Positions 4,918 to 6,022 of a stretch of DNA of 12,017 nucleotides are shown one piece after another. The DNA lies in the IMG/VR virus record IMGVR_UViG_2526164649_000015, one strand, 5' to 3'. Below the pieces are notes generated by a model. That model was not told the origin of the DNA, made no database searches, and saw only the letters and a program-made list of their open reading frames with translations. Positions within the stretch are counted from its first letter, which is position 1. The number at the start of each line of letters is the position of its first letter. Source of the stretch: a virus (lineage: Duplodnaviria; Heunggongvirae; Uroviricota; Caudoviricetes). Made by a program: the position numbers and the translations under genes.

Positions 4918-5150
4918 GAATGGATGTCGTGGAGATGGTATCCGCAGATAGCGCCGCACTTCTGAAGAAAATCAAATGGCCTGATAAGGTTAAAAACCTT
5001 GAGTTGCTTGGGCGCCATGTTTCTGTTCAGGCGTTTAAAGACAACGTCAAAAATGAAGTGACTGGCGCTGACGGAGGACCAGTCAGAACAGAAATTACCA
5101 AATTAACGCCTGAGCAGGCCGCAGAGGTGTATAGAAAAATGATGGGCTAA
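4918..5150 (+). pseudogene. phage terminase small subunit, C-terminal fragment (N-terminus lost at the IS911-like boundary)
   Basis: Frame is open straight from the IS terminus; product ...[33 protein letters not shown] resembles terminase small-subunit C-termini as I recall them; stop 5148-5150 lies 2 bp before the terminase large-subunit ATG. No helix-turn-helix N-terminal domain present. Confidence 0.45.
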
Positions 5151-5152
5151 GT

Positions 5153-6022
5153 ATGCCGTTACCATTCCCCTTCGATTTTAAACATCCTGATTACCAGATG
5201 GTTTTTGAATGGCGGATGGAACGCCTACAGCGCATTCGCCAGAATCCTGAAATATTGCCTGCACTAAAACAGTTTTACCGTACCAACCCGGCTCAGTTCA
5301 TTATCGACTGGGGCATGACAACGGACCCGCGTAATATTGATTATGGCCTGCCGGTGACCATTCCGTTTTTACTCTTCCCTAAGCAGGAGGAGTGGATCCA
5401 CTGGATTATGAAACGCTGGAGCAATCGGGAGAATGGTATTACCGAAAAATCCCGTGAAATGGGGCTCAGTTGGACCGCGATCGGACTGGCCTGCTCGCTT
5501 TGTCTCTTCAACAAAGAAATGGTTATCGGTTTCGGCTCCCGTAAAGAGGAATACGTCGACAGCACCGGTGACCCGAAAGCATTGTTCTGGAAGGCGCGCA
5601 AGTTCGTGGAAACACTACCTGTAGAGTTTCGCGGTTCGTGGAGCGAGAAGAAGCACGCGCCATATATGCGTGTTGAGTTTCCTGAAACTGGCGCGGTTAT
5701 CAAAGGTGAGGCTGGCGATAATATCGGTCGTGGTGACCGTACGACCCTTTATTTTGTGGATGAGGCTGCTTTTCTCCAGCGACCATTACTTATTGATGCC
5801 GCGCTTTCCCAGACAACCCGATGTCGTATCGATCTCTCATCGGTTAACGGTATGAACAACCCCTTCGCACAGAAGCGGCACAGTGGAAAAATCCCGGTGT
5901 TTACGTTTCACTGGCGTAGCGATCCGCGTAAAGACGATGAGTGGTCCGACCTTACTGACGGTTACTGCGGTATTTCAGACCGTAATGAATACAGGAGAGG
6001 TGTCAGTGGGAAGTACGGATAA
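5153..6022 (+). CDS. phage terminase large subunit, N-terminal ATPase domain only (C-terminal nuclease domain absent)
   Basis: Deviant Walker A-like KSREMGLSW and Walker [13 protein letters not shown] ends at 289 codons (stop 6020-6022), whereas terminase large subunits are normally much longer; no nuclease-like continuation in any frame. Confidence 0.65.

Follow-up and report, generated by a model that had tools for sequence, protein, structure and literature searches.

Terminase and baseplate gene remnants in a Shigella flexneri sit-island prophage: the probable scar of an internal deletion

Overview

The stretch of DNA analysed here (the window; 12,017 nt; IMG/VR virus record IMGVR_UViG_2526164649_000015) includes the late genes of a degraded myovirus prophage (positions 4918-12017), in which a gene for the terminase large subunit (terL), reduced to its ATPase half, runs directly into a block of baseplate genes. 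With a probability of about 93%, this arrangement is the scar of an internal deletion of ~13.3 kb combined with a separate truncation by the insertion sequence (IS) IS911, and represents ordinary prophage decay. The ancestor is reconstructed as a myovirus prophage of roughly 45-50 kb that carried the sitABCD genes as cargo at its tail-fibre end.

Across its 12,017 bases, the window matches positions 3803-15819 of contig AKMV01000020.1 (L005; assembly GCA_000268085.1) at 100% identity, an assembly entered as Shigella flexneri 2850-71 in the strain table of PMC6397287. All coordinates are those of the window unless stated otherwise. Two near-intact prophages serve as references, namely those of Escherichia coli FDAARGOS_943 (L002) and of the enteroinvasive E. 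coli (EIEC) strain CFSAN029787 (L013), together with copies from S. flexneri that include an S. flexneri contig (L003) and S. flexneri 71-2783 (L004; CP024470). The proteins used in tblastn searches of the window (E<=1e-3) are those of L002.

The deletion junction and the missing genes

The remnant is collinear with both references on either side of the junction. Positions 4918-5945 correspond to 5692-6719 of L002 (99.6%) and 5696-6723 of L013 (99.3%), and positions 5942-10711 correspond to 20001-24772 of L002 (99.4%) and 20001-24772 of L013 (99.5%). The order of genes from terS (terminase small subunit) to the tail fibres is the same in all three; by contrast, L002 and L013 retain 13.3 kb of head and tail-shaft genes, measured between the breakpoints as 13,285 bp and 13,281 bp, respectively (~13.28 kb), and differ from the window in the C-terminal part of the tail fibre. 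In an alignment of three sequences (the window and the L002 breakpoints on the left and on the right), the match switches sharply at the tetranucleotide TGGT, and the flanks have no further similarity. The junction 36-mer is GCGTAAAGACGATGAGTGGTCCGACCTTACTGACGG. The event connected terL at codon 264/265 with a Dit-like baseplate gene at codon 168/169, the joint lying at the TGGT.

The interval deleted from the window comprises 15 whole genes and two partial genes in L002 and L013, as annotated in RefSeq. These include: (i) on the terminase and head side, the rest of terL and the genes for a DUF1073 portal (Pfam Phage_portal_3), head morphogenesis, DUF2213 and Gp24-like cement proteins, (ii) in the middle, the genes for a 342-aa protein in the capsid position, DUF4054 and other connector proteins and a neck terminator, and (iii) on the tail side, a DUF3383 gene, which from its position and general knowledge we take to encode the tail sheath, a gene in the tube position, two small genes (chaperones) and a lytic-transglycosylase tape measure gene. 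The first 168 codons of the Dit-like gene are lost at the right edge. Searches of the window by tblastn with the 15 L002 proteins revealed no homologue of the portal, head, connector, neck, sheath, tube, chaperone or tape-measure proteins. The set of genes expected of a complete myovirus prophage (portal, capsid/scaffold, connector, sheath, tube and tape measure) is, in this respect, absent from the window.

The terminase remnants

Of the small subunit, residues 109-184 of 184 are encoded at 4920-5147, with 100% identity to the protein of the intact relative by tblastn. The remnant matches PHROG phrog_51 (E=2.5e-8) and reaches only positions 108-139 of the 141 in the Pfam Terminase_2 profile, at 18.6 bits and below the cut-off of 26.1, while the intact TerS matches positions 1-139 with 130 bits. 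What is missing is the N-terminal part of the profile, the mark of a full-length small subunit.

The large-subunit open reading frame (ORF) at 5153-6022 encodes 289 residues. Residues 1-264 of the 539-aa intact TerL are matched at 5153-5944 with 99.6% aa identity (tblastn), and the remainder is read out of frame from the Dit-like gene. Residues 33-265 of the ORF product match PHROG phrog_2 ('terminase large subunit', E=2.3e-13) over profile positions 250-435, where the full 539-aa TerL covers positions 250-596. The best PDB match of the retained half is T4 gp17, which at E=0.39 is not significant alone. This weak alignment pairs motifs of TerL, including LSS, with the T4 segments SRQLGKT, MIYIDECAF and TTT, which we take to be the Walker A, Walker B/Glu and C-motif. 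The window ORF carries the N-terminal ATPase domain and lacks the nuclease domain. The 255-aa nuclease-domain structure 8dkr, the best structural relative of the lost domain, aligns with residues 294-528 of the intact TerL (E=1.8e-30), and residues 209-469 of Sf6 gp2 (4idh; E=4e-21) align with its residues 267-521; these alignments to solved terminase nuclease domains place the nuclease at residues 267-528. The nuclease half was found in no frame of the window when searched by tblastn with the intact 539-aa protein.

The 289-aa product could instead be a complete, naturally short terminase-like protein with an ATPase domain only, with the terminase-to-baseplate adjacency native to a compact satellite or a tailocin-like cluster. 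Its native start, its intact ATPase half and the absence of any Pfam or NCBIfam match that would mark it as a fragment are compatible with such a protein. Neither library matches the full 539-aa TerL either; thus, their silence on the 289-aa protein is uninformative, and PHROGs and PDB sequence searches took their place. This alternative is refuted by the way in which the remnant aligns collinearly with intact prophages. The 264 residues that are 99.6% identical to the full-length protein give way to 25 residues of out-of-frame Dit-like sequence, and the adjacency occurs in no phage record or E. coli genome searched (see below). A tailocin would, moreover, need sheath, tube and tape-measure genes, none of which is in the window. 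A naturally short protein is, on this evidence, extremely improbable, and the 289-aa ORF is most probably a chimeric pseudogene that arose as a by-product of the deletion.

Much of the preliminary description of this DNA stands. It had described a TerL ORF without a nuclease domain in any frame, a terS reduced to its C-terminus and the loss of the portal, head, sheath, tube and tape-measure genes ahead of the baseplate genes, and it had attributed these to a large internal deletion of a prophage; the comparisons above bear out each point. Whether the 289-aa product is a complete family member, a question it had raised, is answered in the negative by the PHROG matches, the PDB nuclease alignment and tblastn. 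The location that it gave for the junction, near 5950-6100, is essentially right, the actual joint (5942-5945) lying 5 bases to the left of that range. It treats two separate events as one, however, the truncation of terS being a distinct boundary with IS911 at 4917/4918.

Distribution of the junction

When positions 4919-7400 were compared by megablast with 5,426 complete E. coli genomes, the query split in two. The terS-terL part (query 1-1027) is matched in hundreds of genomes and the baseplate part (query 1024-2482) in nine, at >=99.7%. In two of those genomes, FDAARGOS_943 and CFSAN029787, both halves lie within one prophage. The terminase-to-baseplate adjacency, which the preliminary description had proposed looking for in intact phages, is found in 0 of the 5,426 complete E. 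coli genomes (no place covers >=80% of the query) and in 0 of 50,697 phage records. The junction 36-mer itself has no exact match in 185,579 species representative genomes, a result that is expected, as Shigella is probably not separately represented there.

The identical 289-aa chimera occurs in at least 22 assemblies (22 contigs), among them S. flexneri 71-2783, whose genome was assembled from PacBio reads and an optical map (PMC5754485), the NCBI assembly GCA_900457175.1 and five independent read-run assemblies. This distribution bears on the idea that the junction is an assembly artefact, either a chimeric join or a collapsed contig. The window does come from a draft assembly of an IS-rich region (AKMV01000020.1), and a change in a poly-A run at 9049 could be a sequencing error; however, the identical junction recurs in the 22 contigs from independent projects, CP024470 among them, and the joint is not at a repeat. 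An artefact is barely conceivable, and the junction is real and inherited across strains.

Mechanism of the deletion and the IS911 boundary

The joint has the features of a microhomology deletion: a short identity at both breakpoints, of which one copy is kept, and no IS element or long repeat. With neither an IS element nor a long repeat there, microhomology-mediated illegitimate recombination, by replication slippage or end joining, would be the most likely route to the internal deletion. By our own calculation, a random blunt joint would show an overlap of >=4 bp only ~1-2% of the time.

In an alternative route, the deletion was the work of an IS element, acting by adjacent deletion or by recombination of two IS copies with each other, or of homologous recombination involving repeats. 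IS2, IS600 and IS911 all lie within 5 kb upstream, the left end of the remnant is itself an IS911 boundary, and the instability of the sit island is put down largely to recombination and IS elements in the relevant passage of PMC7545054. Against this route, no IS sequence or IS end is present at 5942-5945, the breakpoints share TGGT alone, and recombination between two IS copies would leave one of them at the joint. An IS-made or repeat-mediated deletion is, thus, unlikely.

At the left end of the remnant, the first prophage base is 4918 (5692 of L002), directly after the end of IS911 at 4917. The terminal inverted repeats of IS911 can be read directly, as TGAAGTGGCACAC at 3684 and as ...GACCACTTCA ending at 4917, and the joint with the prophage reads ...GACCACTTCA followed immediately by GAATGGATGTCG. 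The transposase of this IS911 carries rve domains. The short contigs that encode the chimera all start within the IS911 end, ~260 bp ahead of terL, so that the strains have the IS911/terS boundary in common as well. We infer that insertion of IS911, followed by an IS-mediated rearrangement, set this boundary, which would have replaced everything upstream of terS codon 108, namely the 5' portion of terS together with the lysis and early genes. The two lesions would leave a grounded prophage that packages no DNA and builds no heads or tail shafts. As the packaging and structural genes are lost, the sit cargo would be locked in place and fixed in the chromosome.

Possible retention for function and points against simple decay

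A further possibility is that the remnant is kept for a function. The TerS C-terminus and the TerL ATPase half might poison the packaging of related superinfecting phages; alternatively, another prophage might make use of the baseplate and fibre genes. In its favour, many strains keep the chimera and five baseplate genes that follow it in conserved and intact form, and the ATPase motifs are intact. The strains compared are, however, nearly identical (the window and L003 differ by 1 base in 7.1 kb), so their conservation is uninformative; every S. flexneri copy of the wedge gene carries a frameshift, as does the baseplate J gene in this strain, and the 25-residue tail of the chimera is accidental. 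Retention for function is accordingly judged highly unlikely. The same low standing applies to a putative dominant-negative decoy, in which the chimera or the plug, hub, spike and initiator genes, if expressed, would hinder the packaging or tail assembly of superinfecting myoviruses; were this doubtful proposal true, a defence function would have arisen from prophage wreckage.

Several points weigh against the reading of the window as simple decay by one deletion and one IS911 truncation. The references are close relatives (99.3-99.6%) and not the ancestor, and the exact length and content of the deleted DNA are to that extent estimates. The history may have had multiple steps, such as an IS insertion, an adjacent deletion and the loss of the IS. 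The baseplate genes from the plug to the sheath initiator are all intact. The retained ATPase half of TerL is complete and keeps its native start, and that the product is non-functional is something we infer. The window and the EIEC copy differ at 5 synonymous and 9 non-synonymous codons, too few to show relaxed selection.

Baseplate and fibre genes downstream of the junction

The coordinates of the features are collected in Table 1. The Dit-like remnant that follows the junction matches PHROG phrog_1830 to the end of the profile, and the full protein matches Pfam Dit_like. Beyond the intact baseplate genes, two genes are split. The baseplate J gene is broken into ORFs of 249 and 155 aa in this strain only: at 9043-9049 the poly-A run has one A fewer than in L003 and the E. 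coli relatives, and this is the sole base that differs between the window and L003 in the 7.1 kb of the prophage part. The frameshift may be a homopolymer sequencing error in the draft assembly. The wedge gene has a 1-bp deletion near 9807 relative to L013, which yields ORFs of 85 and 120 aa. The same split of 85 + 120 aa is found in L003, L004 and L006-L010, and L005 has the same sequence with the second gene called as 115 aa. The split is common to the S. flexneri copies and is, therefore, an inherited second inactivating lesion.

Table 1. Features identified in the 12,017-nt window, from left to right.
Feature	Position	Strand	Evidence or remarks
IS2	791-2120		Inserted in the hydrolase gene ycjY
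Partial IS600 (orfB only)	~2831-3683		
IS911	3684..4917	+	Right end abuts and truncates terS; 99% match to IS911 of phages Sf6 and SfII
terS 3' remnant (codons 109-184 of 184 and stop)	4918..5150	+	tblastn; phrog_51
terL 5' part (codons 1-264 of 539), ATPase half only	5153..5945	+	tblastn; phrog_2
Deletion junction TGGT (4 bp)	5942..5945	+	At both breakpoints in intact relatives, single copy in the window
Dit-like 3' remnant (codons 169-236 of 236 and stop), without native start	5943..6149	+	tblastn to a 236-aa 'phage baseplate protein' (5943-6146)
Chimeric tail of the 289-aa ORF, 25 codons and stop, out-of-frame Dit-like gene	5946..6022	+	terL in frame 2, Dit-like gene in frame 3
Baseplate plug gene, intact	6149..6451	+	Pfam Pam3_gp18, E=1.7e-22; 100% identical to relative
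Baseplate hub gene, intact	6448..7317	+	Pfam E217_GP41, E=6e-8; 99.3% identity
Membrane-puncturing spike gene, intact	7298..7975	+	Pfam spike N-terminal domain, GpV Apex motif; 100% identity
Sheath-initiator-like baseplate gene, intact	7988..8344	+	PF10934 Sheath_initiator in the identical L003 gene; 98.3% identity
Baseplate J gene, split	8341..9581	+	Pfam Baseplate_J; two tblastn pieces in different frames
Wedge gene (DUF2612 / Phage_Wedge1), split	9583..10187 (ORFs 9583-9840, 9825-10187)	+	Two pieces in different frames
Tail fibre gene	10174..11559	+	65% aa identity to the 410-aa tail protein of L002; C-terminal part divergent
Tail-fibre assembly (TFA) gene, runs past the window end	11562..12017	+	95% identity to TFA residues 1-152; Caudo_TAP in L003

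Within the tail fibre gene, the relatives, which elsewhere are 99% identical, no longer match the window in DNA between 10711 and 11281. The tail-fibre assembly gene has up to 59% protein identity to U/U' of phage Mu (region 11470-12017). The fibre C-terminus and the assembly gene together look like a mosaic host-range cassette, judging by these patterns of identity.

The sit island and the sister prophages

In the longer S. flexneri contigs (L003 and L004), genes for two ABC-3 permeases and for an ABC ATPase lie within 2 kb past the window end; by the annotation of matching E. coli records, these are sitD, sitC and sitB. Genes of the sit cluster, as expected of a sitABCD-carrying prophage, lie beyond the tail fibres, outside the window on the same contigs. 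In CFSAN029787 the order is complete, with lysis genes, terS-terL, head, tail, baseplate and fibre genes, then sitDCBA and then uspF-ompN. From this gene order, positions 4918-12017 are assigned as the degraded prophage backbone of the known sit island (pathogenicity island, PAI sit).

The sit island was first described in S. flexneri, according to the passage on it in PMC7545054, where it is portrayed (citing Fisher et al. 2009) as 10-34 kb in size, variable, and unstable through deletions, rearrangements and insertion sequences. A comparable arrangement is reported for enteroaggregative E. coli (EAEC) 042, where a 50-kb prophage bears sitABCD as cargo at its tail end (PMC2808357). The window remnant shares with PAI sit the position of sitDCB(A) directly past its tail-fibre genes and differs in its left flank, which is ycjY-pgrR, connected via IS600 and IS911.

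The cargo beyond the fibres differs between the two references: L002 has ipaH3 (28938-30653), next to pphA-yebV, whereas L013 (28082-31531), like S. flexneri, has sitABCD. The presence of ipaH3 or sitABCD beside structural genes that are 99% identical is read here as a cargo swap or as the same phage type at two insertion sites. Each reference bears lesions of its own, with IS600 in the lysozyme gene and IS1 in a fibre gene of L002 and a frameshifted tape measure gene in L013. A cluster of four tRNA genes (Ile, Arg, Thr, Val) lies between a DUF1133 gene (late-regulator region) and the lysis genes in L002 (1192-1498) and L013 (2467-2773); the prophage region with this cluster is lost in the window.

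Chromosomal backbone and nested IS elements on the left

Positions 1-790 and 2121-2830 correspond to K-12 ycjY and the 5' part of pgrR (97-98% identity). The K-12 coordinates of the two flanks of IS2 (window 786-2125) overlap by 5-6 bases, fitting a target-site duplication. In the segment 2395-3683, the LysR regulator gene pgrR (ycjZ) is interrupted after about codon 145 by the partial IS600, which is in turn cut by the left end of IS911 (3684), such that nested IS truncations bridge the chromosomal backbone and the prophage remnant.

In S. flexneri 71-2783 (L004 8525-9766), the IS911 beside terS is inverted relative to window 3684-4917, and the copy in the window is ~15 bp shorter. Upstream of the L004 copy are a full IS600 and prophage early genes (Hok/Gef, DUF551, DUF4014) rather than pgrR. 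These differences point to an IS-mediated inversion between strains.

Phage affinity

The preliminary description had classed the remnant as Mu/e14/SfV-type. This label is rejected, as the remnant has no terminase or baseplate similarity to any of the three phages. Comparisons of positions 4918-12017 with SfV (NC_003444) and e14 (K-12 1,196,209-1,211,412) returned nothing by blastn (E<=1e-3) or tblastx (>=35 bits), and the match to Mu is confined to the tail-fibre assembly region (~11470-12017). Prophage e14 of E. coli K-12 resembles the remnant in kind, as a grounded prophage in which, by annotation, the terminase fragment ymfN/aaaE, the small ORF beeE and the baseplate-J pseudogene jayE adjoin and are followed by fibre genes; however, it has no sequence relationship to the window and belongs to another phage lineage with other breakpoints.

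Among the 50,697 phage records, the closest terminase is that of the Escherichia phage vB_EcoM-606R2 group, with 92% nucleotide identity over terS-terL and 86% aa identity for TerL. This group has the same structural-gene order as the intact relatives, while for the tail and baseplate module, vB_EcoM-689R2 shows only a faint similarity by tblastx. Relatives of the baseplate J protein in the phage collection include those of Pantoea phage PA-1 (the highest, at 57% aa), Klebsiella prophage-like phages, Edwardsiella phage GF-2 and Burkholderia phage phiE131, with many Pseudomonas phages as more distant relatives. The collection holds no close relative of the baseplate module (<=57% aa for baseplate J), and the parent prophage was found among E. 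coli chromosomes. A distant likeness to the simple-baseplate myoviruses Pam3 and E217/PB1 is evident from the Pfam models matched by the baseplate proteins, which are built on gp18 of cyanophage Pam3 and gp41 of Pseudomonas phage E217. Elements of this kind are mosaic.

Significance

The decay described here is routine and takes place inside a known and previously described Shigella island. What it adds is a base-level account of how the sitABCD prophage was grounded in one S. flexneri lineage, by two lesions. The phage-type label is corrected, and annotators are warned to see a chimeric pseudogene in the 289-aa ORF. The 36-mer across the junction offers a convenient marker for the lineage and could date the event on the Shigella tree. 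The remnant illustrates how a carrier phage, by losing its genes for packaging and structure, leaves its virulence or fitness cargo fixed.

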